A stretch of DNA of 64,000 nt from Clostridia bacterium (GTDB lineage: Bacteria; Bacillota; Clostridia; UBA1212; UBA1255). This document shows, in pieces, positions 19,349-52,409 of this stretch. The DNA lies in contig JAFZSK010000014.1 in assembly GCA_017620915.1 (NCBI GenBank), positions 2,712 through 66,711 of the forward strand, written 5' to 3'. The translations under genes were made by a program, and so were the position numbers. Position 1 is the stretch's first letter. Each line of letters opens with the position of its first letter. The notes beneath the pieces were generated by a model. The model did not search any database, was not told the DNA's origin, and saw only the letters and a program-made list of their open reading frames with translations.

Positions 19349-19351
19349 GTG

Positions 19352-22463: not shown

Positions 22464-22775
22464 GTATCCCTAATTTAGAAATATGAAAAACGGGATACCG
22501 CCAGCGCTCCGAACGGTATCCCTAATTTAGGTATATGTAAAATTAGGATACCGCCAACGCTCCGAGTGGTATCCCTAATTTATGGATATGGAAAAACGGG
22601 ATGCCGCCAGCGCTCCGAGCGTTATCCCTGATTTCGGTATATGAAAAATCGGGATACCGCCAGCGCTCCGAGTGGTATCCCTAATTTAGAGATATGGAAA
22701 AACGGGATACCGCCAATGCTCCGAGCGGTATCCCTGATTTAGAAATATGGAAAATCGGGATACCGTCAATGGATT
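22464..22775. repeat. Tandem palindromic repeat family C: 6 copies of about 52 bp (GGTATCCCTAATTTAGAAATATGGAAAAACGGGATACCGCCAGCGCTCCGAGC)
   Basis: Arms GGTATCCC / GGGATACC separated by about 21 nt. Six copies are phased 51-53 bp apart upstream of the GH2 gene. Confidence 0.9.
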
Positions 22776-29571: not shown

Positions 29572-32154
29572 ATGGCAGCATTTGAAAAGACCTGTTCCGG
29601 CATTCCGGACATGGACGAGGCGCTTCAGTACATCCGGCTGGGGGACAACGTCGTATGGCACGTGCCCTCACTGGATGAGTTCCGGTACGTTGCCCGGAAG
29701 TTCGCGCAGCAGGCGATCAACGACCGCCGCAATCTCATATACGTCCGCTTTGCGGAGCACGCGCCGATCCTCGAGCCGCAGGAGGGATTGAAGATCGAGC
29801 ATGTGGAATTGTCCCACCGCTTCGAGACCTTCACAGTCAACATCCACAACCTGATCGAGCGGGAAGGGAAGGACGCGTTCTATGTGTTCGACTGCCTGTC
29901 GGAGCTCGAACAGGCGTGGTCCACCGACCTGATGATGGGCAACTTCTTCCACCTGACTTGCCCGTTCCTGTTCATTCTCGACACCGTCGCGTTTTTCCCG
30001 GTCATCCGCGGCCGCCATTCTTTTGACGCCATCGCTACGATACGCGACACTACGCAGCTGTTTCTGGACGTGTACACCGACGTCGGGGACATATACGTGC
30101 GCCCGGTCAAAGTCTGGAACCGCTATTCGCAGACAATGTTCCAGCCGTACCATCTGAGCACCGTGGACAACAGCTTCACCGTCCTCTCCGACGGCACGGA
30201 AGTCAGCCGGTTCTACAGTGTGATGAACAAGGCGGCGAGCCAGGCGGCGGATCAGAACGTGGACAGCTGGGAGCGCTTCTTTACCCGCACGAAGCTGCTG
30301 CACGAAAACGGCATTGACGTCTCGAATGAGTGCTCCAAGATCTGCAATATTATGTTGACCCGCGACGTAAAAATGCGGGAGCTGATCAAGCAGAACTTCA
30401 CGCCGGAGGATTATTTCGAGATCCATTCCCGCATGGTGGGCACCGGCATGATCGGCGGCAAAGCGTGCGGCATGCTGCTGGCGCGCAAGATCGTGGAGAA
30501 TCACCGCCCGGACATTTTCGCGCGCTTCGAGCCGCACGATTCGTACTACATCGGCTCGGACGTATTCTACGCGTATATCGTGGACAACGGCTTCTGGGAC
30601 CTCCGCATAAAACAGCGTACGTCGGAAGGCTATTTCACGCTGGCGAAGGAGTTTGAGCAGCGTATAATGGAGGGCAGATTCTCGCCGCGCATCGAGGCGG
30701 AATTCCGCCGGATACTCGACTATTACGGGGGCGATCCGGTGATCGTCCGCTCCAGCTCGATACTGGAGGATGGTTTCGGCAACGCGTTCGCGGGCAAATA
30801 CGAATCGGTCTTCTGCGGCAGCCAGGGTTCGCCTGAAGATCGCCTGCAGAAGTTCGAAGAGGCGGTGAAGACGGTCTATGCCAGCACGATGAGCCTGTCC
30901 GCCCTGGATTACCGGCGGCGGCGCGGGCTGGACAAGCGCGACGAACAGATGGCAATACTGGTGCAGCGCGTTTCCGGCTCCCGGTACGACGGCTTTTTCA
31001 TGCCCTGCGCCGCGGGTGTTGGATACTCCGCGAGTCCGTACCGCATCGGGTCCGAGCGGCCGAAATCCGGCATGCTGCGGCTGGTGATGGGGCTGGGGAC
31101 TGCGGCCGTTGACCGCCGGACCGGTTCGTATCCGCGCATTGTCCCCCTCGACGATCCGACGAAGCTGCTGCATTCCGCCGCGTCGGACCGGCAGCAATTT
31201 TCGCAGCGCATCGTGGACGCCGTGAGCGCCGCGGCCAACGACGTGGAAGGCTTCGACGCGCTGAAGCTCAGTAAAATCGTGCCGGACTACCTGAAACGAC
31301 TGATGTACACGCACAACTACGACACGGAACAGATCCTGCAGGAACGCGGCGCCTGGCGCGAGGTGCTGTTCGTGACCTGCGACGGATTGACCCGCAACGC
31401 GCAGCTGATGGCGGACATGCGGGACATGCTCGAACTGATCCAGACCCGCTACGAATACCCGGTGGATACGGAATACACGATCAACTTCGCGCCCGACGGC
31501 AGCTACGTGATCGATCTTTTGCAGTGCCGGCCGCTGCAGCTCACGGCGGAGGGGGACAAGGTCAATGTTCCTGATAATATCCCCGCAGGCAATATAATTC
31601 TGGAGACCAGGGGAGTGTCCATGGGCTTTTCGCGGGAACTGGCGCCGGACGCGGTGGTGTACATCGATCCGATCAAGTATTATCAGCTGCCGTACCGCCG
31701 TAAATACGAGGTCAAAACGGCACTTTCGGAGGTCAACTGGTCCTACCGCTCCCAGGGCAAACACCTGCTGCTCCTGACGCCGGGCCGGATCTGCACGTCG
31801 TCGCCGGAACTGGGCGTGCCGTCGGCGTTTGCGGATATCAGCGAGTTTTCGATGATCGCGGAGATCTCCGAGTCGCGCGCGGGCTACATTCCCGAACTGA
31901 GCTACGGCAGCCATATCTTCCAGGATCTGGTGGAGGCGGGGATATTGTACACTGCGGTCTTCGAGCAGGCGAGCACTGTGGCGTATTCGCCGGAACTGCT
32001 GGAGCGATTCCCGGACGCGGCGGCCGCGCTGTCAACGCTCCCCGACGACATCAAAGAAGTCTTCCACGTCTACGTGCCGCCGGCGGGGGCAATACGCCTT
32101 TACTATGACATGGGAGAGGAACACCTGCTCATGATGATTAGTTATAAGTTATAA
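29572..32154 (+). CDS. PEP-utilizing-enzyme family protein with C-terminal pyruvate-phosphate-dikinase/PEP-synthase-type nucleotide-binding (PPDK_N) domain and an about 290-aa N-terminal domain of unknown function
   Basis: ...HSRMVGTGMIGGKACGMLLARKI...YIGSDVFYAYIV... and DPVIVRSSSILEDGFGNAFAGKYESVFC match the PPDK_N ATP-grasp. There is no obvious swivel His domain. GGAGG RBS. Confidence 0.7.
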   Translation: MAAFEKTCSGIPDMDEALQYIRLGDNVVWHVPSLDEFRYVARKFAQQAINDRRNLIYVRFAEHAPILEPQEGLKIEHVELSHRFETFTVNIHNLIEREGKDAFYVFDCLSELEQAWSTDLMMGNFFHLTCPFLFILDTVAFFPVIRGRHSFDAIATIRDTTQLFLDVYTDVGDIYVRPVKVWNRYSQTMFQPYHLSTVDNSFTVLSDGTEVSRFYSVMNKAASQAADQNVDSWERFFTRTKLLHENGIDVSNECSKICNIMLTRDVKMRELIKQNFTPEDYFEIHSRMVGTGMIGGKACGMLLARKIVENHRPDIFARFEPHDSYYIGSDVFYAYIVDNGFWDLRIKQRTSEGYFTLAKEFEQRIMEGRFSPRIEAEFRRILDYYGGDPVIVRSSSILEDGFGNAFAGKYESVFCGSQGSPEDRLQKFEEAVKTVYASTMSLSALDYRRRRGLDKRDEQMAILVQRVSGSRYDGFFMPCAAGVGYSASPYRIGSERPKSGMLRLVMGLGTAAVDRRTGSYPRIVPLDDPTKLLHSAASDRQQFSQRIVDAVSAAANDVEGFDALKLSKIVPDYLKRLMYTHNYDTEQILQERGAWREVLFVTCDGLTRNAQLMADMRDMLELIQTRYEYPVDTEYTINFAPDGSYVIDLLQCRPLQLTAEGDKVNVPDNIPAGNIILETRGVSMGFSRELAPDAVVYIDPIKYYQLPYRRKYEVKTALSEVNWSYRSQGKHLLLLTPGRICTSSPELGVPSAFADISEFSMIAEISESRAGYIPELSYGSHIFQDLVEAGILYTAVFEQASTVAYSPELLERFPDAAAALSTLPDDIKEVFHVYVPPAGAIRLYYDMGEEHLLMMISYKL

Positions 32155-32379
32155 GTTTTAAGTTTTAAGTTGAGGAGTTTTAAGTTGAGGAGTTTTAAGT
32201 TATACGTTCGCTCCTCAACTTATCACTTATCACTTGAAACTTGCAACTTGAAACTTACAACGGAAGTAGTATAATACCGGCATCGGGGAGCGCAAAGAAA
32301 CGGCGCTCAATAATATTGTCCACTATTTGGAGGCAGACCATGAAAGTATGGAAATGCTGTCTGGCGGCGAAAACGCGGC

Positions 32380-32690
32380 TAATTGAGTTTTGGCCTCCGC
32401 TCTTTCTCATTGCGGAGGCTACAATCTCAAAATAGAGGAGTTTCGGCCTCCGCTTCAGCTCATTTGGGAGGCCGAAATCATTAAAAAAAGGAATTGCGGC
32501 CTCCGCTTCAGCTCGTTTGGGAGGCCGAAATCATGAAAAGAAGGAATTGCGGCCTCCGCTTCAGCTCGTTTGGGAGGCCGAAATCATGAAAAGAAGGAAT
32601 TGCGGCCTCCGCTTTAGCTCATTTGGGAGGCCGAAATCATGAAAAGAAGGAATTGCGGCCTCCGCTAGTGGTGGCCGCTTGTTTTTCAGG
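32380..32690. repeat. Tandem palindromic repeat family B-prime: about 5 copies of about 61 bp (GGAGGCCGAAATCATGAAAAGAAGGAATTGCGGCCTCCGCTTCAGCTCGTTTG)
   Basis: Same arm motif (GGAGGCCG / CGGCCTCC) as family B at 11521. Lies upstream of the beta-helix lipoprotein gene. Confidence 0.9.
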
Positions 32691-36293: not shown

Positions 36294-36394
36294 ATTATCT
36301 TCCCACTCCTTAGATGTAGGTTTTGTTTCCCCATGATTATATCGCAGACGTACTGCTTAAATCAATCGCTATGCAACTGGCACTGCCGACATCT

Positions 36395-36800
36395 AGCAAA
36401 AGTGGGAAATTTGGCGGTTTGCTAGACGTGGGCGCCTTCTCTCACTTTTAGGAGCAGCGGGATTTTCGCGAGCGTCTAGCAAAAGTGGTCAAATATAGCG
36501 GTTTGCTAGACGCGGGCTCCTTCTCTCGCTTTTAGGAGTAGCAGGATTTTCGCGAGCGTCTAGTAAAAGTGGTCAAATCAGGTGATTTGCCAGATGCAGG
36601 CTCTTTCTTCCCCTTGAGAAGCAGTAATAATCACAATCATCGTCTAGCAAATCACGAAAAGCAACCGTTTTGCTAGAAGCAGGAGCTTTAACAGTATTGA
36701 AAATGAGCGAGAATTGTAACTGTCGTCTAGCAAATCATAAAGAACAGCCGATTTGCTAGACGCAAGCACTCTTTCTGCTTGCAAAATGGGAATAATCAGT
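36395..36800. repeat. Tandem palindromic repeat family D: 5 copies of about 84 bp, each with GTCTAGCAAA-N20-TTTGCTAGAC
   Basis: Example: CGTCTAGCAAAAGTGGTCAAATATAGCGGTTTGCTAGACG. The array sits in the divergent region between the GH109-like and DUF3737 genes. Confidence 0.85.
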
Positions 36801-39012: not shown

Positions 39013-40539
39013 TTGGCCGGGGAGACAGGAAAGCAATACGAGGCCGTGATCGGCCTGGAGATACATATCGAGGTCAAAGGCGCCGGCAAGATGTTCTGCG
39101 GGTGTCCGGCGGAGTTTTCGTTGACGCCCAACGTCAACGTCTGCCCGATCTGCATGGGCTACCCCGGGGCGCTGCCGCGGTTCAACCGGCGCGTGTTGGC
39201 CCCGGCGGTGCGCGAAGGGCTGATGCTGGGCGCGGAGATCGCGCGGGAGGTCCGGTTCGACCGCAAACACTATTTTTATCCCGACCTGCCGAAGGGCTAC
39301 CAGATCACTCAGGCCGAACTGCCGCTGGCATCCGGCGGCGCGATCTTTGTGCACGGGGACAGACCCGCTTTTGAACACGGGGACAGACCAGTGTTCAAAA
39401 ACGAGGACGAAGTTGCGATCCGCATCCGCCGCATGCACATGGAGGAGGACGCCGCGAAGGTCAATTACGGCGCGGACGGCGCAATGCGCATCGACTACAA
39501 CCGCGCGGGGGTGCCGCTGCTGGAGATCGTCACCGAACCCGACCTGCGGAGCGGCGCGGAAGCGGCGGAATTCGCGGAAAAGCTGCGGCTGTACACGGTG
39601 TACGCGGGGGTCTCGGACTGCCGGATGAACGAGGGCAGTATGCGCATTGACGTCAACGTCTCCGTTCACCGCCCCGGCGATCCGCCCGGCAGCCGGGTGG
39701 AACTGAAAAACATCAATTCCTTTGCGTTCATGCGGGCGGCGATCGATTTCGAAGTCCGGCGCCAGACCGCGCTGCTGGAGGCGGGAGAGGCCGTGCCCCA
39801 GGAGACCCGGCGGTTCTCCGAGGAGACGGGGGAGACGCTCCCGATGCGAGCTAAAGAAAATTCAGCGGAGTACCGGTATCTGCCGGAGCGGGATATTGTC
39901 CCCGTGCCGGTGAGCGCGGAACTGATCGAAGCGGAACGCAAAGCATTGCCGGAAAGACCGGAGGCGAAACTCGCGCGGTATATTGAATCGTTCGGGCTGC
40001 GGGCCGCGGACGCGGAACTGATCGCCTCGGAACCGGCGCGGGCGGCGTATTATGAAGCGGTGTGCGGCGCGGCGGAAATCGCGAGGCGGTATGAGGCGGA
40101 AGCGGCCAAGTTCTGTATCTCCCGGGTGTTTCCCGGCAAGGCGTTGCTGACAACAGCGCAGACCGCGGCGATCGTACGGCTCATTGCGGAAGGCGAACTG
40201 GGCAGCGCGAATGTGGTAAAACTGATCGAGGCGGTGAGCGGCAGACCGGACGCGGATCCGGCCGCGGAGCTGGCCGCGCGGGAACTGGGGCTGATCCGGG
40301 ACGAGGCGGTACTGGCCGAGGCGGCGGACAACGCCATTCGTGATAACCCCGAGGCAGTGCGGCAATACCTGAACGGCAAAACGGCGGCGCTGCAGGCGCT
40401 GAAGGGCGCGTGCATGAAGGCGACGCGGGGGAGAGCGGAACCGATGCGACTTGATTCGGTGCTTAAAAGCAAGTTGCAAATGTCAAATGGCAAAGGGCAA
40501 GTTGCAAATGGCAAGTTGCAAATGGCAAAGGGAAAATGA
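39013..40539 (+). CDS. gatB: Asp-tRNA(Asn)/Glu-tRNA(Gln) amidotransferase subunit B, with in-frame palindromic insertion and low-complexity C-terminal tail
   Basis: YEAVIGLEIHIEVKGAGKMFCGCPAEF...CPICMGYPGALP... then the cradle domain and C-terminal YqeY-like domain. TTG start chosen at 39013 with GAGGAGG RBS. The track ORF extends spuriously upstream. Confidence 0.8.
   Translation: MAGETGKQYEAVIGLEIHIEVKGAGKMFCGCPAEFSLTPNVNVCPICMGYPGALPRFNRRVLAPAVREGLMLGAEIAREVRFDRKHYFYPDLPKGYQITQAELPLASGGAIFVHGDRPAFEHGDRPVFKNEDEVAIRIRRMHMEEDAAKVNYGADGAMRIDYNRAGVPLLEIVTEPDLRSGAEAAEFAEKLRLYTVYAGVSDCRMNEGSMRIDVNVSVHRPGDPPGSRVELKNINSFAFMRAAIDFEVRRQTALLEAGEAVPQETRRFSEETGETLPMRAKENSAEYRYLPERDIVPVPVSAELIEAERKALPERPEAKLARYIESFGLRAADAELIASEPARAAYYEAVCGAAEIARRYEAEAAKFCISRVFPGKALLTTAQTAAIVRLIAEGELGSANVVKLIEAVSGRPDADPAAELAARELGLIRDEAVLAEAADNAIRDNPEAVRQYLNGKTAALQALKGACMKATRGRAEPMRLDSVLKSKLQMSNGKGQVANGKLQMAKGK
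39345..39402. mobile_element. Tandem (about 2 copies) in-frame palindromic element inside gatB (CTTTGTGCACGGGGACAGACCCGCTTTTGAACACGGGGACAGACCAGTGTTCAAAAAC)
   Basis: Encodes the inserted peptide VHGDRPAFEHGDRPVFKN between conserved GatB segments. Confidence 0.7.
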
Positions 40540-40583
40540 TAAAGGGCAAATTGAAAATGGTGAGCGGAGAAGGGAAGAAAAAG

Positions 40584-42125
40584 ATGAGTAATGGATACGT
40601 AAACACCGGACTGCGGGAATTCACCGCGCGGCTGCCGGAGCAGAAGATCGCTGTGCTGGGCTTCGGCGTCAGCAACCGCGCGCTGCTGCGGTTTTTGAAG
40701 GCCAACGGCGCGAAAAAAGTGTTTCTGCTGGAACTGAAGGACAGCGCGGAGGCGCGGGCAGAGGCGGAGGCGCTGGCGGCGGACGGCACGCTGGCGGGAT
40801 TTACGTTCGGGGAGGGGTATCTGGACGGATTGCCCGCAGGCGGCTTCGACCTGATCTTCCGGTCGCCGATAATACGGCCGGACGAGGCGCATATTGACGC
40901 CGCCGTGCGGAACGGAGCGGTATTGACCTCCGAAATGGAAGTGTTCATGGAGCATTGCCCCTGCCCGATGTACGCCATCACCGGCAGCGACGGCAAGACC
41001 ACCACGACCACGCTCACCGCGCGCCTGCTGGAGGAACATTATAAGGACACGGACGTGCGGATCTGGCTCGGCGGCAACATCGGCACCCCCCTCATCGACA
41101 AACTCGACCTGATCCGGCCCCGCGACCGCGTGGTGCTGGAGCTGTCCAGTTTCCAGCTGATGCACACGCGCGTTTCGCCCGAAGCGTCCGCGATCACCAA
41201 CATCACGCCCAACCACCTGAACGTGCACAAGGACTATCAGGAATATATCGATGCCAAAAAGGCCATTTTCAACCGGCCGCTTTTGAACAGGGGACAGACC
41301 CCGATTTTAAACGGGGGACAGACCCGTGTTCAAAAAAAGCGGGTGGTGCTGAACGCAGGCAACGCAGTCACCGCCGGCATCGCGCGCGACCTGGCGGAAA
41401 ACAATGCGGGGGATATGATCGTTGACGTCTTTACCGCCAAATCCGCGAAGGAGACCGCGTTGACGCTGGCGCACAACGGCGCCACGGCGTATTTTGACGA
41501 CGGCAAACTCGTGTTCACCGGCTTCTGCGCGGGCTGCGGCGCCTGCGCGGGACAGCGCTTCGAACTGGCGCGGGAAAACGTGCAGCTTCCGGGCATGCAC
41601 AATGTGGAAAACCTCATGACCGCGGCGCTGCTGCTCCGGACGGAGATCAGCCCGGAGGACGTGCGCGCAGTTGCCGCCCGCTTCGGCGGCGTCGAGCACC
41701 GGCTCGAAAAAGTGCGAGAGCTGGACGGCGTGACGTACATCAACAGTTCTATTGACAGCAGCCCCGAACGCACGATCAACGCGCTCTCGGTATTTCCCGA
41801 CCGCAGCCTAGTGATGATCGCCGGAGGCAAGGACAAAAACCTCGACTACTCGCCGCTGGGCGCGCATCTGGTGCGCAAGGTCAAAACGCTGATCCTCACC
41901 GGTCCCACCGCGGACAAGATCGAGGCGTCGCTGAATGCCGCCGGAGGCGCGGATATTGTCAACGTCGTTCACGCTTCTTCGTATCCCGAGGCGGTTGCCG
42001 CCGCGCGGCGGTGCGCCGTGGCCGGAGATGTTGTCCTCCTGTCGCCCGCCAGCACCAGCTTCGACATGTTCAAAAATTTTGAAGAGCGGGGCAATACGTT
42101 CAAACGGCTGGTGAACGAGCTATAA
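40584..42125 (+). CDS. murD: UDP-N-acetylmuramoyl-L-alanine--D-glutamate ligase, carrying an in-frame palindromic insertion
   Basis: KIAVLGFGVSNRAL Rossmann-like N-terminus, Mur ligase P-loop TGSDGKTTTTTL, and ...GGNIGTPL..., ..NSSIDSSPERT.. MurD motifs. RBS GGAGAAGGG before the ATG at 40584. Confidence 0.85.
   Translation: MSNGYVNTGLREFTARLPEQKIAVLGFGVSNRALLRFLKANGAKKVFLLELKDSAEARAEAEALAADGTLAGFTFGEGYLDGLPAGGFDLIFRSPIIRPDEAHIDAAVRNGAVLTSEMEVFMEHCPCPMYAITGSDGKTTTTTLTARLLEEHYKDTDVRIWLGGNIGTPLIDKLDLIRPRDRVVLELSSFQLMHTRVSPEASAITNITPNHLNVHKDYQEYIDAKKAIFNRPLLNRGQTPILNGGQTRVQKKRVVLNAGNAVTAGIARDLAENNAGDMIVDVFTAKSAKETALTLAHNGATAYFDDGKLVFTGFCAGCGACAGQRFELARENVQLPGMHNVENLMTAALLLRTEISPEDVRAVAARFGGVEHRLEKVRELDGVTYINSSIDSSPERTINALSVFPDRSLVMIAGGKDKNLDYSPLGAHLVRKVKTLILTGPTADKIEASLNAAGGADIVNVVHASSYPEAVAAARRCAVAGDVVLLSPASTSFDMFKNFEERGNTFKRLVNEL
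41280..41338. mobile_element. Tandem in-frame palindromic element inside murD (CTTTTGAACAGGGGACAGACCCCGATTTTAAACGGGGGACAGACCCGTGTTCAAAAAAA)
   Basis: Encodes LLNRGQTPILNGGQTRVQKK, inserted in the central domain. Confidence 0.7.
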
Positions 42126-42251: not shown

Positions 42252-45200
42252 ATGAAGAAAATCGTTTCAATAGCACTGGCGATCGTTTTAATTGCATCGC
42301 TGTGCTTGCTGAGCGTATTCGCGGACGGCACGGAAGTGACCAACCTGGCGCTCGGCAGACCGGTGGACGTGTCCATCGATTCCGGAAACGGCAATCTCGG
42401 CAGCGGATTCTGGGATAAAGACTACCTTACCGACGGTCAGGTCCCGGTATTCGGCGGCGAAGGCGATCAGTCCAGACTGGGCTGGTATGCGCAGACCATG
42501 GTCGAAGCCATCGATTGCAAGATCACCATCGATCTGGGCGGCCTGTGCGCGGTAAGCAAAGTTGTGCTTTCTCCGCAGACGTTCCTTGACGGTGCGCAGT
42601 TCCCCACGGATTATACGATCCAGGTCTCTACCGACGGTTCCGCCTGGACAAACGTTGCCGGCGAGACCGGTCACACCGCGTCCTCTACCGCAAACGTTGT
42701 ATTGACGTTTGACGAAGTAGACGCGCGTTATGTCCGCATGGCTATAACCAAAGCCGGCGTTGCCCCGGGCGACGGCACGTATCATACCGGTTTTGCCGAG
42801 TTCGAGATCTACGGCTATGCAAAAGGCGAGATCGCGGAACCCGATACCGAAGTGTACACTGCGGCGGGCGGCGGTATCGTTTGGGATGCCGGTGTATGGC
42901 TTGCCAACGAAACCGATGTCGACGGACACGGTGGCCGTACTTTCGGCGCAATGGTCAATACCAGCGCTCCCATCCTTGAAGCCGGTGTTCCCAACTACTG
43001 GGCCAGCAATCCCAACAACAACGCGGCACAGGCCAGAGCCACAGTACATATTAATGTATACAAATTTGACACCAACTATGCCGCGACCAAGAAGATCGCT
43101 CCGGTCGCTTCCGGAGAAGTGGAACTTGCCGGTGACTCGGGTGTAGGCGAAGTAACGGAAGTCGCGGGCACGAACTGCAAGATCGTGGCCAACGGCAGCG
43201 CCGGTGCAAAACTTGTATTTAACACTCCGCTCGAAGCCGGCCAGTACCTGATCGAGATCAGCCAGGTTACGCAGCAGGAAGCATCTCACTATCTTGTTCT
43301 GCCCATGACGCAGGAAGCTCCCGGTTCTAAGGCTACTTACTACCTGAACGATGTGCTTCAGGACAACCTGACCTGCAGAGTGCGTCTGCTGCTGAAGGGC
43401 TCCGGCGAACTGCTGGATGTGACCGCGGACTCTGAAGCCGAGTTCAAACATTCGCTTGACGCGCTTGCGGTTAACGAGAACAAATATCCTGTCTCCTCTA
43501 ACCAGAACGAGGCGACCACGATCACTATCAATGAAGGCGATAAGCTTTATATCCTCGGCTGGACCGCCAAGACCGGTACGAACCTTGATAAGATCATCTG
43601 GCAGTACATTGAAGGCGACCACAAGTTCAATGAGGACGGCGTGGAGATCATCACAAAAGATTGCTCCGACACGTACAGACCCAGAACGGAGATCTCTCCG
43701 TATATTGGCGTCAACGAAGCGTTCCTTACCAACGCCGGTTTCGGTCTGGACAACAGCCTGATGGAACTGGTGGGCGTTGACGAACTGGCTCCCGGAACGT
43801 ATTCTCTGAGAATCCGTGCCCAGTTTGATGACGGCTCCGACGGCGCGATAAAAAAGAAATTCGTGCTGAATGTTGTCGAGACTCCGAAGGTCAAAGTTAT
43901 CCTTGGCACCGAAGAGACCGCTGTCAAACCCGACGCGGTATCTCAGGTCGCACTGTCCATGGACGAAGGCAGCATGGTCGTTGCCACCAATTCGGATGCT
44001 TCCGATCCCTGGGTCTCCATCCCGCTGAACAACATCGACACTTCCGTGTACACTTCGTTCACGGTCAAGTACAGACTGGTAGGCGAGAGCGCGTTCGCAG
44101 CCAACAACGTCTACTTGCGCGACACCGAAGTCAACAAGGGTTACTCCGGCGTGGGCGGCACCTGGCATGCTCCGGAAATGGACGGCAAGACCGAGAGAAC
44201 ATTCGTTATTGCCGATGACTTCCCGACCATGGCCGGCACGCTTCTTACCGGTGTGCGCTTTGTGGCCTGCAAGCCCGGCCAGACGTTCATAATCGACTCC
44301 ATCACCTTCAACAAGGCGGAAGAGCCGCACACTCCCGTAACGCGCAGCTTTGACTCCGCTACGGACAATCAGTACTTTGACGCCATCTTCATCAACGACG
44401 AAGAAGGCCCGAGAGCTAACGGCAACGACGCGGTGGCGGCCCTCAAAGCCCTCATCGACGGCAGCGCCGAAGAGATCAACAAGATCGGTCTGTACGGCTG
44501 GTTCGCCTCCGATTCTCCGATCGTGCAGTTCGGTTATATCCTTGACGACGCTGATCCTGTGTTTGACGACTCGTTCGTTGCTCCCTTCGGCAGCCCCGAA
44601 GAGGAAGCTACCATCACCGGCACCAGAGCGGGCGGCAAGAGATACCGCGTCAACGTTGACGTCTCCGGCCTGAAGGACGGTGCGACTCACGTTATTAAAG
44701 TAGTTGCCAAACTCGAGAACGGCGACATCGTTATCTTCGACAGACCGAATAGAGAAGCTATCGTGAACTATCAGGCTCCCGCACCGGCGGAGACCCCGTT
44801 CGTGGAATATATGTCCCGCGACCAGGTCACCATCGACGGCGTTGACAAAGCGAGCTTCGGCGGCAACGCTGAAGTCACCGATATCGCGGACAATCTGTAC
44901 GCTGACTTCGGCAAGCAGCTGCGCTTCTGGGGCTGGTACGGCAACAACAAATCGCTGGAGAAATACGGCGTGAGAGTTGACGGCGGCGAGGCTCAGTATT
45001 TCGACAGATACGAGGCTGAGGACATTGTCAACCACTTCAAAGCCAACCTGATCAAAGACGACGACGTGTACGCGTCCCGCTTTGAGATCTTCGTTGACAT
45101 CACCGAAGGTCAGCACACCGCGGAAGTGTTCGCGGTCGTGAACGGCGAAGAGCACCTGATCTGGACGATCAACTACAACTGCATGCCTGAGGAAGTTCCT

Positions 45201-45323
45201 CAGACGACCAAGCCCGGGACCGAGCCTCCGCAGACCGGCGACGCGCTGCTTGCGATGTTCGCGGTCATCGCTGTGCTGGCCATGAGCGCTGCTGTGGTGT
45301 TCGCCCGCAGAAAGTCTCACTGA
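42252..45323 (+). CDS. Large cell-wall-anchored surface protein: N-terminal F5/8 type C (discoidin/CBM32-like) domain, repeated about 110-aa modules of unknown function, C-terminal PPQTGD sorting motif plus TM and positively charged tail
   Basis: Signal peptide MKKIVSIALAIVLIASLCLLSVFA. F5/8-C-like block DYLTDGQV...YTIQVSTDGSAWTNVAG...ARYVRMAI. C-terminal ...PPQTGDALLAMFAVIAVLAMSAAVVFARRKSH. AGGAGG RBS. Confidence 0.8.
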   Translation: MKKIVSIALAIVLIASLCLLSVFADGTEVTNLALGRPVDVSIDSGNGNLGSGFWDKDYLTDGQVPVFGGEGDQSRLGWYAQTMVEAIDCKITIDLGGLCAVSKVVLSPQTFLDGAQFPTDYTIQVSTDGSAWTNVAGETGHTASSTANVVLTFDEVDARYVRMAITKAGVAPGDGTYHTGFAEFEIYGYAKGEIAEPDTEVYTAAGGGIVWDAGVWLANETDVDGHGGRTFGAMVNTSAPILEAGVPNYWASNPNNNAAQARATVHINVYKFDTNYAATKKIAPVASGEVELAGDSGVGEVTEVAGTNCKIVANGSAGAKLVFNTPLEAGQYLIEISQVTQQEASHYLVLPMTQEAPGSKATYYLNDVLQDNLTCRVRLLLKGSGELLDVTADSEAEFKHSLDALAVNENKYPVSSNQNEATTITINEGDKLYILGWTAKTGTNLDKIIWQYIEGDHKFNEDGVEIITKDCSDTYRPRTEISPYIGVNEAFLTNAGFGLDNSLMELVGVDELAPGTYSLRIRAQFDDGSDGAIKKKFVLNVVETPKVKVILGTEETAVKPDAVSQVALSMDEGSMVVATNSDASDPWVSIPLNNIDTSVYTSFTVKYRLVGESAFAANNVYLRDTEVNKGYSGVGGTWHAPEMDGKTERTFVIADDFPTMAGTLLTGVRFVACKPGQTFIIDSITFNKAEEPHTPVTRSFDSATDNQYFDAIFINDEEGPRANGNDAVAALKALIDGSAEEINKIGLYGWFASDSPIVQFGYILDDADPVFDDSFVAPFGSPEEEATITGTRAGGKRYRVNVDVSGLKDGATHVIKVVAKLENGDIVIFDRPNREAIVNYQAPAPAETPFVEYMSRDQVTIDGVDKASFGGNAEVTDIADNLYADFGKQLRFWGWYGNNKSLEKYGVRVDGGEAQYFDRYEAEDIVNHFKANLIKDDDVYASRFEIFVDITEGQHTAEVFAVVNGEEHLIWTINYNCMPEEVPQTTKPGTEPPQTGDALLAMFAVIAVLAMSAAVVFARRKSH

Positions 45324-45375
45324 GCATGATCAACCGGCCGCGCCGCAGGGCGTGACCCGGGAATAAGCAAAACTA

Positions 45376-45432
45376 AAAGAGGCTGTTCAAAAACCTGCCG
45401 ACGCGGGGGCTTGAACAGCCTCTTTATTAATT
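45376..45432 (+). terminator. Intrinsic terminator (15-bp stem AAAGAGGCTGTTCAA / TTGAACAGCCTCTTT, then T-rich tail)
   Basis: Read directly downstream of the 45323 stop. Confidence 0.7.
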
Positions 45433-45605
45433 AATTAATCTATTGAAACCGCATAAAAACGGGCAGGAAATAGTAAAATGAAAAAAATGCAGTAAAGTCA
45501 AAAAACTGTTGCGGCATTTGATTTTTTATGTTATACTGACAACGACTTGGTTTTTATGGAAAACGAAACATAAACCAAACAAAAAGAATAATTGGAGGAG
45601 TAAAC

Positions 45606-48600
45606 ATGAAGAAGCTGACAATCGCGTTGATCGTAGTATTGACGCTGGTTCTGGGACTTGGCGTTCTGACGGTCGTCGGAATGGATGCCATGTATGCTGA
45701 CGTTAATACACTTCAGTGGGACGGCACGACCCCGGATTCCGGCCTTGTCGGAGCATCAACTGTTAAGATCGATCCCGGACAGAAACTTTATATTCTCGGC
45801 TGGTTTGCAGAGCATGGAAAAACTGTCGATAAAGTAGTCTGGACGCTTGACGGCGTTGAAAAAGAATGCGCTGATAACTACAGAGACAGGGGCGAGATCG
45901 CGGGAATATTTGGCTCACCGTGGGTCGCGGAAGATTTCAATAGAGCAGGCTACGGAAAAGACGCTGACATGATGGAACTGCTCGGCGTTGACGAACTTGC
46001 AGAAGGCATTTACACCGTTTCGATCATAGGTAAATTTACGGACGGTTCTTCGCAAACGCTTAAAAGCGATTTTACCCTTGCCGTCGGCAACGTCGCTACC
46101 CTGTCTGATCATCCTATCAGAAACGGCGGCGAGAGCATCGGTACCTGGATCCAGAAAGGCAGTGTTTCCAACTATGTAGAATTCACTACTGCAGGGAAGG
46201 TAAGCGGCTTTAACTTCCATTACTGGGCTTCCAACCCGGCCGGAACCGGTCCCAAAGCTACGTGGAAAGCAGAACTTTACAAATTCGTGAACAATCCGGA
46301 TTATTCGTTCACAAAAGACCCGCTTAAAACTGTGACTGTCACGTCTAATGGTGACAACGATCCTGTCGTTAACGTTAAGTGGGACGAAGCTCTGGATGCC
46401 GGAACTTATCTCATTAAATTCACGATCCTGAATCCGGATTACACCGAGGAGATCGGCGGCGAAATGAAGCGTCCTTACTTGGTTCTGCCTAAGATCACCA
46501 ATCCTGACGCTGCTAAATTCGCATACGGTGCAGATGCTTTCAATCTCTCGGTATACGGCGAAGACGTTGACGGCGACTTCTTCCTGGAAAATCCCGCGAA
46601 TGTTGATTCAAAAGAAATTTTACAGATCGACTACGTATGGCTTCATACATCAGGCGAAGTGATTGAAAATGTAGGCACAGGACCCGATATCGGTAATATA
46701 AAGACCGCAGTTGACAAGGGTGCTTCGCTTTTCTCGATTATCGGATGGTATTATCCGCAGAAACCGATCGACCACTTTGAGATCCAGGTTGACGACGGTG
46801 AACGCATCGCTGTCGAGGGCACCTATAATGCCGATACAGCTGCGGTCATCGGCGGATGGGACGGATGCTCCGATTATGAATGGTACAGAAATTATACTGC
46901 TACAGTTCAGCTCCTTGAAGGCGAGCACAATGTTAAATTATATGTCAAATCTTACGATGGAACTGAGAAATTGCTCTATTCGGGACGCTACCTGAATGAC
47001 GATTCCAATATTGCGTATGGAAAGAGAACAGTCGTAGGTTATACTGCAGGATCGCCTTACGGTTCTCCCTACTGGAGCGAAGGCTACCTCACGGACGGAA
47101 CAAAATGGAAATTCAGCGACGGCACAGTTAAAAACCCGGTCCCGCTGGGCTGGTACGTTCAGGATCCTGCAGACAACATGATCTACATCGACCTTGAAGA
47201 TGTGTACGATCTGACGGAGATCAAACTCTATCCTATGGGCTTCGCTTACGGCACGTTCCCGAATACGTTCACCGTATATACTTCTCTCGATATGGCGGCC
47301 TGGGATGTGGTCGGCGGCGAGACCGGCCTGACGGGTGCTTTTGACTCTGCAGCTCCGTTCTCATATACCACGACCAACCGTGCAAGATATATCTGTGTTG
47401 TTATTAACACGGGCAACAACGGTCAAGTAAGTTTAGGCGAGATCGAAGCTTACGGTACTTTCGTTGAGGAAGGAACCGGGCTTCCGGCATATCTGCCTTA
47501 TTATTCCAACTATGGCGGCGGTGTAAGATATGACGATCCGTGGAACGATTCCTCCTGGACCGGCTTTAACACCGGTTCGCTTGAGAACAAGATAGTATTC
47601 AATACCGATGTTCCGATCAGCGCAATACAGTTCCCTGCGGCATGGGCGGCGGAGGATACTCCTGTGACCTTCACGTTTAAGAAAGACGGCGCGGTCGTCG
47701 CGACAGTCGAAAAGGTGTTCACAGGCGACGGCGGATTTATTCTTGAGTTTGCCGAGGAACTTCCGGCGGGTGAATATGTATTAGATATCAAGATAACGGA
47801 TGATAAGGTCAATCCCGAGAATGGCGCCTATGCGTACTATCTTGCCCTTGGTTACGCGGATGCTGCTCCGTACGGCAAAGAATATGTTGACCAGCTGCGC
47901 GGCCGCAATGTTGCTATTAACCTCTATTCCAGCGACACGACCGGCGAAGGCTTCATCAAGCGTAATTACAAAGAGGGAATGTCCCGCGATCAGGTAAGAG
48001 TTGACGGCGTGGACAAAGCGAGCGTCGGCGGCAATGCTGCTGTAACGGACATTGCAGAAAACCTTTACGACTCCATCGGCAAAAACATCAACTTCTGGGG
48101 CTGGTACGGAAACAATATGGGCCTCGATAAGTTCGGCGTCAAAGTTGACGGCGGAGAAATGGTCTACTCTGACAGATACTCCGATCCCAGCATCGCGGCG
48201 CATCTTACCAACAACGTATTCAATGGCGATATTGCGTACAGCGATCGCTTCAATATCGATGTCGAGATCACCGAAGGCGAACATACCGCTGAGGTTTACG
48301 CTATCACCAACGACGGCGAAGTGCTTGTCTGGACGATCAACTACAAAGCGACTGCTCCGGAGGAGGAACACGGCCTGCGCGATTTCGACAAGAACAAAGG
48401 CGACGCTCTGTCCTATGACAACATTTTCGTCAACGGCGAACAGGTGGCCGAAGGCAACAGCCAGGTCATCGCGACCAAGAAGCTGATCGACGGTTCTGAC
48501 GGCTCTGTTGAAAACATCGCTATGCGCGGCTGGTACGGCAACGCGAACGCGAGCGTAGTAAGCTACGGATACCGGATCGACGGCGGAGAGCCGGTATACG

Positions 48601-49382
48601 GCGATTTCGCGTCCGAAGCAGAGCAGCCTGTAATTGAATCGGGCGGCGAGTCCAGATTCCTGGTCACCGTTGACGTGACCGGACTTAAAGACGGCAAGGA
48701 GCATAAGATCGAAGTCGTGGCCAAGCTGGACAACGGCGACATCGTTATCCTCAACAGATACGACGTTGATACCGATAAGGATCGCGAAGTCTACGTGAAC
48801 TACAAAGCGCCGGAAGCTCCGGAAGAAGAGCTGAAGTGGCATGTCAATATTGACGCCATCACCGCGGGCGGAGCCGCTCAGGATAAGACCGATCCGCTTG
48901 CGCTCGAAGTTGCCAACGACGTTGACAGCATCAACTTCCACGGCTGGGTCGCTTCCAACAAGCCTATCACGAAATACGGATACAGAGTTGACGGCGGGGA
49001 AGTCGTTTACTTCGACGGAACGCTCGGCGGAGAAGACGCTGATTCTGTGGCGATCATGAACGCCGCGAAGGGCATGTACGGCGAGAACGGCAACGGCTAC
49101 CGCTACAGCAAGGATATCCCGCTTGATGAAGGTGAGCATACGCTCGAGATCATCGCGCTGTGCGGCGATACCGATGTTGCGGTCTTCACGATCAACTACA
49201 AGAGAGCTCAGGCTGAGACTCAGCCTACCACCGAGCCCACCACCGAACCTACCACCGAGCCCGGGACCGAACCCGGAACCGAGCCGCCGCAGACCGGCGA
49301 CGCGCTGATCGCGATGTTCGCGGTCATCGTGGTGCTGGCAATGGGTGCCGCTGTGGTATTCGCGAAGAAAAGATCGTTCTGA
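45606..49382 (+). CDS. Large cell-wall-anchored surface protein paralog (1258 aa): central F5/8 type C-like domain, multiple copies of the same about 110-aa repeat module, PPQTGD anchor
   Basis: Signal peptide. F5/8-C-like block around residues 480-640 (YLTDGTKWKF...FTVYTSLDMAAWDVVGGETG...ARYICVVI...GEIEAYG). Modules with GWYGN...YG(Y/V)(R/K)VDGGE...EGEHT. C-terminal ...PPQTGDALIAMFAVIVVLAMGAAVVFAKKRSF. GGAGGAG RBS. Confidence 0.8.
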   Translation: MKKLTIALIVVLTLVLGLGVLTVVGMDAMYADVNTLQWDGTTPDSGLVGASTVKIDPGQKLYILGWFAEHGKTVDKVVWTLDGVEKECADNYRDRGEIAGIFGSPWVAEDFNRAGYGKDADMMELLGVDELAEGIYTVSIIGKFTDGSSQTLKSDFTLAVGNVATLSDHPIRNGGESIGTWIQKGSVSNYVEFTTAGKVSGFNFHYWASNPAGTGPKATWKAELYKFVNNPDYSFTKDPLKTVTVTSNGDNDPVVNVKWDEALDAGTYLIKFTILNPDYTEEIGGEMKRPYLVLPKITNPDAAKFAYGADAFNLSVYGEDVDGDFFLENPANVDSKEILQIDYVWLHTSGEVIENVGTGPDIGNIKTAVDKGASLFSIIGWYYPQKPIDHFEIQVDDGERIAVEGTYNADTAAVIGGWDGCSDYEWYRNYTATVQLLEGEHNVKLYVKSYDGTEKLLYSGRYLNDDSNIAYGKRTVVGYTAGSPYGSPYWSEGYLTDGTKWKFSDGTVKNPVPLGWYVQDPADNMIYIDLEDVYDLTEIKLYPMGFAYGTFPNTFTVYTSLDMAAWDVVGGETGLTGAFDSAAPFSYTTTNRARYICVVINTGNNGQVSLGEIEAYGTFVEEGTGLPAYLPYYSNYGGGVRYDDPWNDSSWTGFNTGSLENKIVFNTDVPISAIQFPAAWAAEDTPVTFTFKKDGAVVATVEKVFTGDGGFILEFAEELPAGEYVLDIKITDDKVNPENGAYAYYLALGYADAAPYGKEYVDQLRGRNVAINLYSSDTTGEGFIKRNYKEGMSRDQVRVDGVDKASVGGNAAVTDIAENLYDSIGKNINFWGWYGNNMGLDKFGVKVDGGEMVYSDRYSDPSIAAHLTNNVFNGDIAYSDRFNIDVEITEGEHTAEVYAITNDGEVLVWTINYKATAPEEEHGLRDFDKNKGDALSYDNIFVNGEQVAEGNSQVIATKKLIDGSDGSVENIAMRGWYGNANASVVSYGYRIDGGEPVYGDFASEAEQPVIESGGESRFLVTVDVTGLKDGKEHKIEVVAKLDNGDIVILNRYDVDTDKDREVYVNYKAPEAPEEELKWHVNIDAITAGGAAQDKTDPLALEVANDVDSINFHGWVASNKPITKYGYRVDGGEVVYFDGTLGGEDADSVAIMNAAKGMYGENGNGYRYSKDIPLDEGEHTLEIIALCGDTDVAVFTINYKRAQAETQPTTEPTTEPTTEPGTEPGTEPPQTGDALIAMFAVIVVLAMGAAVVFAKKRSF

Positions 49383-49440
49383 TCTCTGATCTCCGATCGA
49401 TCCGGCCATTTAAGCGGCTGAAATAGCTTAAACAATACGG

Positions 49441-49489
49441 GGCTGTTTGCAGACCTTGCTTTTGCGGGGCGAACAAACAGCCCTTTTGA
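49441..49489 (+). terminator. Intrinsic terminator hairpin (GGGCTGTTTG...CAAACAGCCC, then TTTTGA) immediately before the third paralog
   Basis: 10-bp stem, 23-nt loop, U-tract. The next start codon follows 10 nt later. Confidence 0.55.
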
Positions 49490-49498
49490 GGAAACGGT

Positions 49499-51955
49499 AT
49501 GAAAAAGATCATTATTTCAACGATATTGGTGCTGGCGATGTTATTGTCGCTGTGCAGCTTTGCCGGTGCCGCGGAAACGCCGTGGGAATACTGCCAGATG
49601 GATTTTGTACTGCTCTGGAACAAAGACGTGGCATTCATCGAGAACATGGGCAAGGGCAGTGATCTCGGCCAGATCAAACCGGCCGTTGACGCCGGGGCCA
49701 ACGGCATCTGCCTGATGGGCTGGTATTATCCGCCAACGACAGATGAGATCGTTGACTACGGTTATCAGGTGGATGACGGCGAGATCGTGTACGATTCCAT
49801 TGCCTGTATTTACGACGCGAATCTGGCGCCTGCGCTCGTGTCCTTTGGCGGCGACTGGGTCGATCGTGCCGACTATGCCCGTAACTTCAACGGCAACATC
49901 CCGATCCAGGAAGGCAGCCACACGGTCAAACTGATCGCCAGGTTCGCGGACGGTTCCACAAAAGCCATTTATCAGACCCGTTACGCCAACGACGATTCCG
50001 ACCTCGCGCTGAACAAGCCGGTCTATATCGAGCTGAAGAACGGTGTCCGCAACGGTTCGGGCTACTGGGACGATTCGTTCATCAACGACGGCTACAATCC
50101 CGTGCACAAGCCTGATGTGGTTCCGGATCCGGTGCCGCTGGGCTTTTATCCGATCGCCGCCGGACACGTGGTCGCGGATATATACATTGACCTCGAAGGC
50201 GAGTACGACCTGGAAAAAGTCACGCTCCACTCCCAGGGCTTCTATAGTGACTCCTTCCCGAACACATACAATGTGTATACGTCCAAAGACGGCGCCAGCT
50301 GGGATAAGATCGGCGGCGAAAGCGGACGGACCGGTGAAGTCGATACCGCCGAGCCCTTCGTGTATGCCACCACCAACCGTGCGCGCTTTATCAAAGTAGA
50401 GGTGCTCTCGGGCAATATCGTTGACGACAGCGGCTTCGAATACATGGGCATCGGCGAGATCGAGGCGTACGGCAAATACGCCGGCAAATCCACCGTGGTC
50501 AAACCCGGCTACATTCCTTACTCGAACTATTCGGGCGGCGTGGCGTTCGGCGACGCGGGCGGCAATTCCGCCTGGACCGGCTTCACTACCGGCACGCTTA
50601 CTTATAAATTTATGTTCAACACCGATGTGTCGTTCTACAAGATCGGCTTCCCGGTGGCGTGGGGCCTTGCGGGCACGCCGCTGAAGTTCGAGTTTAAGAA
50701 GGACGGGGAGGTCGTTGCCACCCAGACGTACACGGCAGTCGGCGACGCGCCGTTCACGCTGGACATCGGCAAGACGCTCGAAGCGGGCGAGTATGAGGTC
50801 ATTGTCACCATCACGGACGATGAGCTCCGGCCGGAAGGCGACCCGAACGCCGGCGCCTACCTGTATTACATGGTATTCGGCTACGCGACCGAAGGCGTGC
50901 TGGACAACACATACTTCGCCCAGGAGCGCGGCCAGATCGCCTTCGATCTATACTCGAACGAAACGAATGGCCAGGGCTTCATCAAGCGCGAATACAAGCA
51001 GCACGCCAACATTGACGCGGTCTCGCTGGACGGGGAGAGCAAGGGCAATGAGAACGGCCTGGCGATCACAGTAAGCGAGAACAGCCAGAACATCCTGGTG
51101 CACGGCTGGCTGGCGGCCAACTATCCGATCGAAAAGTACGGGTACAAAGTTGACGGCGGCGCGGCGGTGTACGACGACAGCTTCCTCAACCGGGATTACG
51201 GTACGGCGGAAGCGCCCAACGCGGACTATTTCGCGATCCTCGGCGTGGCGCAGGATCTGTACAGCGTCGCGGGCAACGGTTTCCGTGCCAACGTTCTTGT
51301 CCCCGTGACCGAAGGCGGCCACTCTGTGGAGATCGTGGCGATGGTCGCCGGTGAAGAGAAAGTGTTCTACACCTTCACGTACGCGCCGGAAGGCGTGCAT
51401 GTGCCGGTGACGCGCAGTTTTGACGCGGATACGGACAATCAGTACTTCGACGCTATCTTCTACAACAACGAGGACGCTCCCCGGGCCAACGGCAACGATG
51501 AAGTGGCGGCGCTGAAGACGCTCATTGACGGCTCGGCCGGTGACATCGAAGTGCTGGGTCTGTACGGCTGGTTCTCTTCCGATTCCCCGATCGTGCAGTT
51601 TGGTTATGTGCTGGACGGCAGGGATCCGGTATTTGACGACGCGTTCACGGCGCCGCTAAACGCCGGGGAAGAGGAGGCGATCGGCGGTTCCAGAGCGGGC
51701 GGCAAGCGGTACCGCGTGAATATTGACGTCACCCGCCTGAACGACGGCAATACCCACGAGATCAAAGTCGTGGCAAAACTGGAAAACGGCGACACGGTCA
51801 TCTTCGACCGGGCCAACCGGGAAGCGATCGTATACTACAAGGCGCCCGGCGCTGAACTGCCCGGTACCGGTGACGCAGTGATCCTCGTGCTCGCCGCGAT
51901 CGCGCTGCTGGCAATGACCGCCGCAGTGATATTCATTCGCAAAAAAGCGCATTGA
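49499..51955 (+). CDS. Cell-wall-anchored surface protein paralog (818 aa): F5/8 type C-like domain, shared C-terminal module, canonical LPGTG anchor
   Basis: Signal peptide MKKIIISTILVLAMLLSLCSFAGA. F5/8-C-like block around residues 165-320. The C-terminal 150 aa are about 75% identical to protein 1. Ends ...LPGTGDAVILVLAAIALLAMTAAVIFIRKKAH. Confidence 0.8.
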   Translation: MKKIIISTILVLAMLLSLCSFAGAAETPWEYCQMDFVLLWNKDVAFIENMGKGSDLGQIKPAVDAGANGICLMGWYYPPTTDEIVDYGYQVDDGEIVYDSIACIYDANLAPALVSFGGDWVDRADYARNFNGNIPIQEGSHTVKLIARFADGSTKAIYQTRYANDDSDLALNKPVYIELKNGVRNGSGYWDDSFINDGYNPVHKPDVVPDPVPLGFYPIAAGHVVADIYIDLEGEYDLEKVTLHSQGFYSDSFPNTYNVYTSKDGASWDKIGGESGRTGEVDTAEPFVYATTNRARFIKVEVLSGNIVDDSGFEYMGIGEIEAYGKYAGKSTVVKPGYIPYSNYSGGVAFGDAGGNSAWTGFTTGTLTYKFMFNTDVSFYKIGFPVAWGLAGTPLKFEFKKDGEVVATQTYTAVGDAPFTLDIGKTLEAGEYEVIVTITDDELRPEGDPNAGAYLYYMVFGYATEGVLDNTYFAQERGQIAFDLYSNETNGQGFIKREYKQHANIDAVSLDGESKGNENGLAITVSENSQNILVHGWLAANYPIEKYGYKVDGGAAVYDDSFLNRDYGTAEAPNADYFAILGVAQDLYSVAGNGFRANVLVPVTEGGHSVEIVAMVAGEEKVFYTFTYAPEGVHVPVTRSFDADTDNQYFDAIFYNNEDAPRANGNDEVAALKTLIDGSAGDIEVLGLYGWFSSDSPIVQFGYVLDGRDPVFDDAFTAPLNAGEEEAIGGSRAGGKRYRVNIDVTRLNDGNTHEIKVVAKLENGDTVIFDRANREAIVYYKAPGAELPGTGDAVILVLAAIALLAMTAAVIFIRKKAH

Positions 51956-52215: not shown

Positions 52216-52409
52216 GCAGGTCACAGACGCAGCCGACCTTTGCCATTTGCCCTTTGTCATTTACCCCCTGTCCCTTGCCCTTTGCCCCTTGCGCCAAGGC
52301 TGTCTTCGTGGTACAATACTATGAGGTGCTTTGGCCGCAGGCCCGAACGCCGCCAAATGGCAATTTGCAAACAGCAAGTTGCATGAAATAATTCAGAAGG
52401 TGAAATTCA

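Follow-up and report, generated by a model that had tools for sequence, protein, structure and literature searches.

Rickettsia palindromic elements (RPEs) were reportedly described by Ogata et al. in 2000. Elements of this kind lie in frame within housekeeping genes (PMC10969869, PMC3733652), and repetitive extragenic palindromic sequences (REPs) likewise turn up within genes, tRNA synthetase genes among them, frequently as dimers or groups coding for 20–30 residues (PMC3733652). Here we describe a hairpin repeat in gatB, the gene of an essential translation enzyme, in a stretch of 64,000 nucleotides (nt) from a Clostridia bacterium (assembly GCA_017620915.1, contig JAFZSK010000014.1, positions 2,712 to 66,711 of the forward strand), which we call the window and number from its first letter. 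The in-frame insertion of a palindrome is itself already known from Rickettsia RPEs and from REPs; the element is undescribed, and its host group consists of uncultured rumen Clostridia. We favor the hypothesis, to which we assign a probability of about 0.72, that the gatB insert consists of two units of a REP/RPE-like, lineage-restricted hairpin repeat that is tolerated, is translated as an extra loop, and has changed in copy number by slippage.

The host gene is identified by full-length matches to two NCBIfam equivalogs, NF004012 with 496 bits (cutoff 338) and TIGR00133 with 421 bits, and GatB chains in the PDB match the open reading frame (ORF) of the window at E = 1e-100. The public protein P0001, of 508 aa, is identical to the window GatB begun at the TTG at 39013, and in an alignment of 120 sequences the protein retains H18, E144, D146, R164, K85, and other invariant residues. 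At 39346–39402 the gene reads TTTGTGCAC-GGGGACAGACC-CGC and then TTTTGAACAC-GGGGACAGACC-AGTGTTCAAAAAC, that is, two head-to-tail 24-nt units in frame, and the peptide PAFEHGDRPVFK spans the insert. An earlier note on this DNA, made from the letters alone, had claimed just such an in-frame tandem palindromic element in gatB, and the sequence bears it out save for a trivial offset, its start at 39345 being one base before the first T of the element. The note was also right that the left arm is degenerate: TTTGTGCAC is real, and the second copy is a complete hairpin. The 14-mer CACGGGGACAGACC occurs exactly twice, at a spacing of 24 nt; when up to two mismatches are allowed it has four matches in the window against 0.37 expected, a count that none of 100 shuffles reaches. 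The 11-nt core GGGGACAGACC has six exact occurrences in the window, all on the + strand. The 86-nt insert region folds as RNA at -30.7 kcal/mol (z = -2.4), and with a covariance model (R1) that was built from 47 copies of the element and run on the window with filters off, unit 2 scores 51.6 bits on the + strand and 26.3 bits on the - strand.

Comparison of alleles establishes directly that the insert varies in length among close relatives. We measured the distance between two conserved anchors in the DNA of the closest public gatB relatives. This distance is 40 nt in L001 and L003, which hold no copy (…GCGATC TCTGTG GGCGGGAAY GCGATC…); 70 nt in L002, with one copy; 94 nt in the window, L005, and L032, with two copies; 109 nt in L035, where a decayed first unit is followed by one 24-nt unit; and 133 nt in L004 and L008, from the rumen metagenome-assembled genome (MAG) RUG12823, where a decayed first unit is followed by two identical 24-nt units. 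The copy number in the RUG12823 lineage is thus two or three. Across the five length classes the excess over the empty allele is 30, 54, 69, or 93 nt, every difference is a multiple of 3, and the zero to three copies occupy the same nucleotide position. The 54 nt gained by the window over L001 and L003 are 18 codons, which matches the 18-aa insertion given in the earlier note. Because exactly one 24-nt unit distinguishes L035 from L008, and the single copy of L002 equals the two-copy allele of L032 minus 24 nt between direct repeats, copy number at gatB appears to change by whole units, as expected from slippage or unequal recombination, and slippage is the probable driver. Throughout, gatB is under purifying selection, with dN/dS of 0.15–0.22 in every allele pair at any copy number and dS of up to 0.6.

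The age and the boundaries of the insertion can be approached from the same alleles. RUG12823, the most distant of the five alleles, has the same degenerate first arm, TT(C/T)GTGCAC, which suggests that the insertion in gatB is old and was later lost in the haplotype of L001 and L003. Sequence near the site pairs the window with L002 and L001 with L003, and the divergence between the window and L001 peaks there at 0.13 compared with 0.01–0.05 elsewhere; recombination, or recurrent insertion at one hot spot, fits the allele pattern equally well. The sequence TCTGTG of the empty allele corresponds to TTTGTR in the filled alleles, and the left-arm bases TTTGTG of unit 1 match it at five of six positions. 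The degenerate left arm of unit 1 may therefore be target sequence rather than element, in which case the inserted DNA would start at CAC. For this boundary and for a target motif gatB is the one informative empty site, the second pair (L006 and L034) being too diverged. Neither at gatB nor at L006/L034 does the comparison of filled with empty sites show a target-site duplication.

The earlier note had asked whether the region might be an assembly artefact or might be removed in the manner of an intron or intein. Two-copy alleles are present in three independent assemblies or samples: an identical GatB protein is found on two assemblies, and the independent metagenome contig L032 carries a two-copy allele of its own. 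As that allele differs from the window at two element positions, the tandem is not an assembly artefact. As for removal as an intron, as an intein, or by translational bypass, the sole point in its favor is the apparent hazard of a stable hairpin within an essential gene. However, the insert does not qualify as an intein, an intron, or a known structured RNA: at 54 nt (18 aa) it is far below intron or intein size, and a scan of the window at Rfam gathering thresholds gave no match. All length variants of gatB, and of the second host gene murD, differ by multiples of 3, and since a removed segment need not keep the frame, splicing or bypass is unlikely. In addition, copies due an in-frame TGA have lost it. 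We regard removal or artefact as close to refuted and scarcely credible.

The position of the insert in the protein agrees with what had been expected in the earlier note, namely a surface loop of the N-terminal catalytic domain. Among 120 aligned GatB sequences the insert is confined to the window, P0002, and P0005, and the two closest insert-free relatives read GGAISVGGNAIRIRR. In alignments to 3h0l_B, 2df4_B, and 3al0_B the extra residues come after the strand downstream of the PLxxxG motif and before the one that enters the HxEED motif. An AlphaFold2 model of the window GatB, made from the 120-sequence alignment, has a mean pLDDT of 92 and a pTM of 0.88 and matches the solved GatB structures 3ip4_B and 3h0l_B at TM 0.8–0.9 (Foldseek). 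It comprises a strand at 106–114, a coil at 115–127, a short bridge at 128–130, and a strand at 133–145 that runs into the motif H142-E144-E145-D146. The coil has a pLDDT of 62–79, with blocks of 79 and 62 across residues 111–130 and 93 thereafter. On this model the insert is the lengthened tip of a β-hairpin in the N-terminal cradle domain, which comprises residues 1–294 in Staphylococcus aureus GatB (PMC2811023). As the metal-binding E144 lies 11 strand residues from the tip, the latter is predicted to be remote from the active site. The known sites of tRNA recognition in GatB, a 3-10 turn at residues 183–186 and the tail domain (PMC2811023), are in other parts of the sequence. The segment from G109 to H142, most often 18 residues long (85 sequences), spans 10–27 residues in the 115 GatBs without the element and reaches 32 residues in the window and 45 in P0005. 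Given this range without the element, the site seems naturally tolerant of changes in length, and a permissive insertion site in GatB is indicated.

Could the insert instead have been fixed as a new functional loop of GatB, in contact with other parts of GatCAB or of the transamidosome? Its location in the catalytic cradle domain would suit such a role, and at least three lineages that have diverged retain it, which may date it to before a split at dS ~0.59. However, its copy number and sequence vary freely (HGDRPVFKN; HGDRPAFEHGDRPVFKN; HRERPVFEQGDRPVFEQGDRPGVQKSG), the two closest alleles are without it, the model renders it as a low-confidence coil, and the same DNA yields unrelated peptides in other proteins. 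This contrary evidence is strong, if short of formal exclusion, and we hold a functional loop to be very improbable; the element most probably has no function for GatB.

The window contains further copies of the repeat. Model R1 recovers only four complete hairpins in the window, at 20379–20420, 20725–20766, 39364–39404, and 41299–41339, each of which scores ~50 bits on the + strand and 16–26 bits on the - strand. All four sites are intragenic (table 1): besides gatB, they lie in murD (identified by TIGR01087) and, twice, in the gene of a GH3-family glycosidase. The murD element is present in all relatives examined, which differ among themselves by 12- and 24-nt in-frame indels, and its first unit is decayed in RUG12823; the insertion in murD is older than the polymorphism in gatB. 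The two GH3 copies are 346 nt apart and are read in two different frames, and the first of them includes 32 nt that are identical to the RUG12823 ortholog.

Table 1. Positions of gatB, of its insert, and of the further in-frame element copies in the window
Feature	Positions	Strand	Details
gatB coding sequence	39013–40539	+	508 aa; host of the insertion; TTG start 10 nt downstream of GAGGAGG
gatB tandem unit 1 (24 nt)	39346–39369	+	degenerate left arm TTTGTGCAC, core GGGGACAGACC, then CGCT; without a right arm of its own; repeat family D12
gatB tandem unit 2 (complete hairpin)	39370–39402	+	TTTGAACAC-GG-GGACAG-ACC-A-GTGTTCAAA, then AAC; both arms pair in RNA and DNA folds
Net gain over empty gatB alleles	39349–39402	+	54 nt = 18 codons, V113–N130 = VHGDRPAFEHGDRPVFKN
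Second tandem in-frame pair, in murD (40536–42125)	41281–41337	+	encodes LLNRGQTPILNGGQTRVQK; frame differs from that of the gatB copies; period 24, 2.0 copies
Single in-frame copy, GH3-family glycosidase gene (19349–21709)	20385–20415	+	left arm TTTGTACAG; in-frame TGA of the canonical arm reads TGT
Second single in-frame copy, same GH3 gene	20731–20761	+	third frame, LNKGTDPVSK

Taken together, the copies are read in all three frames and yield the distinct peptides GDRP, GQT, and GTD. Base composition alone leaves two of the three frames of the element open, whichever way it is oriented. In the remaining frame the canonical element has a TGA, and the copies read there carry TGT (GH3) or an arm that is shorter by 1 nt (murD). 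The loss of the in-frame TGA appears to be what a survival filter leaves, not evidence of design. The earlier note had proposed that the element is either tolerated or selected to be protein-compatible. Tolerance fits the intact ORF and the purifying selection on gatB at any copy number; selection for compatibility finds no such support.

We considered whether the element was to blame for the split of murD in L004 and rejected this, the cause being a CAG-to-TAG change ~70 nt upstream of the element. That change, at ~3026 of L004, is found in one RUG12823-like assembly, L008 and L035 keep CAG, and it represents a sequencing error or a strain-level pseudogene. The junction of gatB and murD (40469–40560, the 3' end of the one and the 5' end of the other) carries ~12 heptamer repeats, GCAAGTT/GCAAATG and relatives, that encode the C-terminal tail of GatB (…LQMSNGKGQVANGKLQMAKGK) and the N terminus of MurD. 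This stretch is hypervariable among relatives (30–40% divergence), and the C termini of GatB differ. Similar heptamer-type arrays occur at 4513–4570, 21690–21790, 25017–25075, 32135–32257, and 52237–52292, mostly at gene ends and in intergenic spacers.

Copies collected from related contigs define a family. From 92 distinct copies we derive the consensus CG-T5-GAACAC-GGGG-ACAGA-CCC(C)-GTGTTC-A5-CG, a hairpin of 31–37 nt with a stem of 13–16 bp (including the T and A runs) and the 5-nt loop ACAGA. Its conserved part is the inner hairpin GGGG-ACAGA-CCCC, around which lie the outer arms TTTGAACAC/GTGTTCAAA and, beyond these, a T-run on one side and an A-run on the other. In 47 copies the arms pair at ~80% of positions, compared with at most 57% when the partner is slid. 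Arrays have the architecture n × (left arm + core) followed by one right arm, with periods of 22–25 nt outside genes and 24 nt inside, and some of 30, 33, and 45 nt. Among 185,579 species-representative genomes, the exact pattern GGGGACAGACC-N(1,2)-GTGTTCAAA is found only in RUG12823, a rumen MAG (CACZOW01) annotated as uncultured Ruminococcus sp., with 17 matches on 10 contigs. The same pattern is present on 19 metagenome contigs, and a scan of viral contigs for both arm variants gave no match. A literature search for the core 11-mer GGGGACAGACC returned only unrelated eukaryotic primer and promoter sequences and no bacterial context.

The related contigs, ~310 kb in all, contain 122 exact cores, which fall at 47 distinct non-orthologous sites. 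Sites were called intragenic from genes predicted by log-odds of codon usage in the window; two simpler classifiers, one using GC3 alone and the other GC1-GC2, were dropped after they misassigned gatB as antisense. By these calls ~27 of the 47 sites are intragenic, which at a coding density of 0.89 means that genes are hit less often than random insertion would predict. On the related contigs the element occurs in ~20 other genes and at cistron junctions, and Pfam verifies as in-frame hosts a P-type ATPase, an asparagine synthase, a DinG-like helicase, GH95, GH2, an ABC transporter, and a NUDIX-GNAT fusion. It often falls at domain linkers, such as that between the membrane and ATPase parts of the ABC transporter or that between NUDIX and GNAT. 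In the his operon (hisZ-G-D-C-B-H-A/F; L018, L031) it stands, single or in tandem and mostly sense, at nearly every cistron junction, which recalls the placement of REPs in enterobacterial operons. A more distant relative, L038, whose GatB is 57% identical, has a gatB without the element. L038 contains 11 copies of a sister hairpin, GCAAC(C/G)GGGG-ACAGA-CCC(C/G)GGTTGC, with the same inner stem and loop and different arms, which cluster in two intergenic regions (2870–3320 and 8960–9260) among short repeats of the type GGAAATA(A/C)C. Since so distant a relative has the inner hairpin with other arms, the inner hairpin appears to be older and more widespread than the arms.

The element also shows a pronounced preference for one orientation. 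Of the intragenic sites, 22 are sense to the host gene and 4 are antisense (two-sided binomial p ~5e-4), and between co-directional genes ~9 are sense and 1 is antisense. The two orientations being equally stop-free, either the insertion mechanism or the RNA would be responsible for this bias. In the window the coding strand coincides with the strand of positive GC skew, and judging by GC skew and gene-strand bias the sense strand appears to be the leading strand, so that the two causes are inseparable there. Moreover, terminal copies at orthologous sites are identical at 152 of 161 positions, compared with 0.76 in the coding flanks, although requiring an exact core biases the former figure upward. 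The GH3 copies are identical to the RUG12823 ortholog at 63 of 66 nt, compared with 0.68 at fourfold-degenerate sites of the gene. The inner, older units of arrays do decay. A scan for terminators flagged no site on the element, and because the U-run precedes and the A-run follows the hairpin in either direction, the T's preceding and the A's following on both strands, the element is not a terminator. RNAalifold on the 47 copies recovered only the three innermost pairs. Individual variants in which both arms have changed do exist (TTAAGCAC/GTGCTTAA at L009:6054), from which we do not claim compensatory evolution.

These observations invite the alternative that the hairpin is kept for a function in the transcript, where its ACAGA loop would be recognized by a protein or RNase, or the hairpin would slow ribosomes or protect the upstream mRNA, so that the gatB copy would be maintained by selection on RNA. 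Such a function would account for the sense bias of equally stop-free orientations, for the copies at almost every his-operon junction, for terminal copies more conserved than their flanks, and for arms whose runs avoid a terminator in either direction; the persistence of the inner hairpin in L038 with other outer arms speaks for it as well. However, close relatives hold anywhere from zero to three gatB copies without sign of cost, positions within genes are haphazard, in loops and linkers, no covariation was detected, the older units inside arrays decay, and strand-specific insertion explains the bias equally well, given that sense is the apparent leading strand in the window. On balance we deem a transcript function decidedly unlikely. 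A related and more specific idea is that a dedicated enzyme that binds hairpins, or a factor that binds RNA, recognizes GGGG-ACAGA-CCCC, and that the uncultured rumen Clostridia thus actively maintain a coding-compatible hairpin system. If true, this would explain the bias toward the direction of transcription, the resistance of terminal copies to decay inside ORFs, and the gain of fresh 24-nt units by arrays; we put it forward tentatively and think it unlikely.

We therefore return to the reading of the insert as a tolerated, slipping hairpin repeat and propose the following course of events. In a clade of uncultured rumen Clostridia the repeat would spread, or would once have spread, through the genomes at the DNA level, and would have entered gatB without target duplication at the distal turn of the β-hairpin in the cradle domain. 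There it would be transcribed and translated as an extra disordered loop that GatB tolerates. Replication slippage or unequal recombination between units would then shift the copy number among 0, 1, 2, and 3 by one 24-nt unit at a time, and in an essential gene only in-frame, stop-free variants would survive. The original spread may have been the work of an enzyme that recognizes hairpins in single-stranded DNA, such as a REP-associated tyrosine transposase (RAYT) or an HUH transposase of the IS200/IS605 type; this is the weakest step of the proposal because no such gene was found in the ~325 kb searched.

Several points weigh against this proposal. Escherichia coli RayT, used as a phmmer query against every ORF of 60 aa or more in ~325 kb, a small part of any genome, had no hit below E = 2.7, and 20 neighboring proteins (the his operon and 10 host genes) scanned with Pfam yielded housekeeping genes only and no transposase. 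The conservation of terminal copies above their flanks and the sense bias of 22 versus 4 are not what purely neutral junk predicts. The covariation of the 14 arm pairs in the 47 copies does not exceed that of shuffles (0.104 versus 0.099, with 123 of 500 shuffles as high). At gatB itself the five alleles fit gain of copies as well as loss, and the boundaries of the insertion are ambiguous in that the left arm may derive from the target.

The gatB locus amounts to a clean natural experiment in which one essential translation enzyme carries, in the same loop in close strains, 0, 1, 2, or 3 copies of an 8-residue unit encoded by a hairpin. It shows small palindromic repeats lengthening proteins in frame and extends this phenomenon from mainly Rickettsia and Proteobacteria to rumen Clostridia. 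For annotation and for the quality control of MAGs, such inserts resemble errors yet are real, and the element can serve as a strain-level marker.

The window contains other repeats and features that are separate from the element. Four or five intergenic tandem arrays share a constant period of 53–54 nt (6705–6821, 11204–11726, 22461–22769, and 32436–32666), and each has its own hairpin of 9–11 bp, for example GTCAGCCACAA…TTGTGGCTGAC, GGAGGCCGAAA…TTTCGGCCT, and GGTATCCC…GGGATACC. An 84-nt tandem repeat of 2.6 copies with 85% matches occupies 36392–36608, in the spacer upstream of a DUF3737 gene. Near 11–12 kb, by large 54-nt arrays, the predicted genes turn from mostly the - strand to almost all on the + strand, and the cumulative GC skew rises thereafter; this switch could mark a replication origin or terminus boundary, or just an operon boundary. 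At 42252–51955 lie three large paralogous genes of ~1024, 1259, and 819 aa, with F5/8 type C domains in public gene calls, that share segments of 75–87% identity, one of which is a C-terminal hydrophobic, anchor-like stretch.

How, then, does the element compare with described systems? [quoted passage not shown] Like the MITEs Correia/NEMIS, RUP, and ERIC, the present element is small, noncoding, dispersed, and sometimes intragenic; at 31–37 nt and without flanking duplication, however, it is not a MITE. In the REPIN/RAYT system the gene of the RAYT, a Y1 HUH transposase, lies in the same genome and is flanked by the repeats. Our element shares with REPIN/RAYT and with IS200/IS605 elements (HUH Y1) a hairpin that could be recognized in single-stranded DNA, the lack of a target-site duplication, a strand bias, and vertical persistence in a clade. 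Unlike in REPIN/RAYT, inverted pairs occur at few sites only (L016, L026), and the partner enzyme is putative.

The generic description of a REP fits in that the element is a short stem-loop palindrome with many dispersed, lineage-specific copies, and fails in that its location is not predominantly extragenic. The CGTC REP families carry an unpaired CGTC (TGTC/CCTC) at one end and a short CCA-like tail. In our element there is no unpaired GTAG/CGTC tag, and among the 92 distinct copies the CGTC of some arm variants is base-paired in the stem. The GTAG/CGTC-tagged REPs (Di Nocera, De Gregorio, and Rocco 2013, PMC3733652) are nonetheless similar in kind: both they and this element are GC-rich hairpins of 20–40 nt, many-copy and lineage-restricted, that lie mostly between co-directional or convergent genes, with a subset inside ORFs, and without target duplication. 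The present element has the longer stem (13–16 bp with the T/A runs), has more than half of its sampled sites inside genes, belongs to a Clostridia lineage rather than to Proteobacteria, and had no RAYT in the ~325 kb searched. It also forms mostly head-to-tail arrays that share arms, whereas the published tagged REPs are mostly head-to-head dimers.

The resemblance to RPEs lies at the level of the protein. Both are selfish palindromic repeats that stand in frame in housekeeping genes and are translated, presumably being tolerated because they fall at points that the fold can take. Whereas elements of the RPE-1 type measure ~100–150 bp and supply one conserved peptide in one frame, the unit described here measures 24–37 nt and supplies three peptides in three frames, and, unlike RPEs, it forms 24-nt tandem arrays whose copy number differs among close strains.

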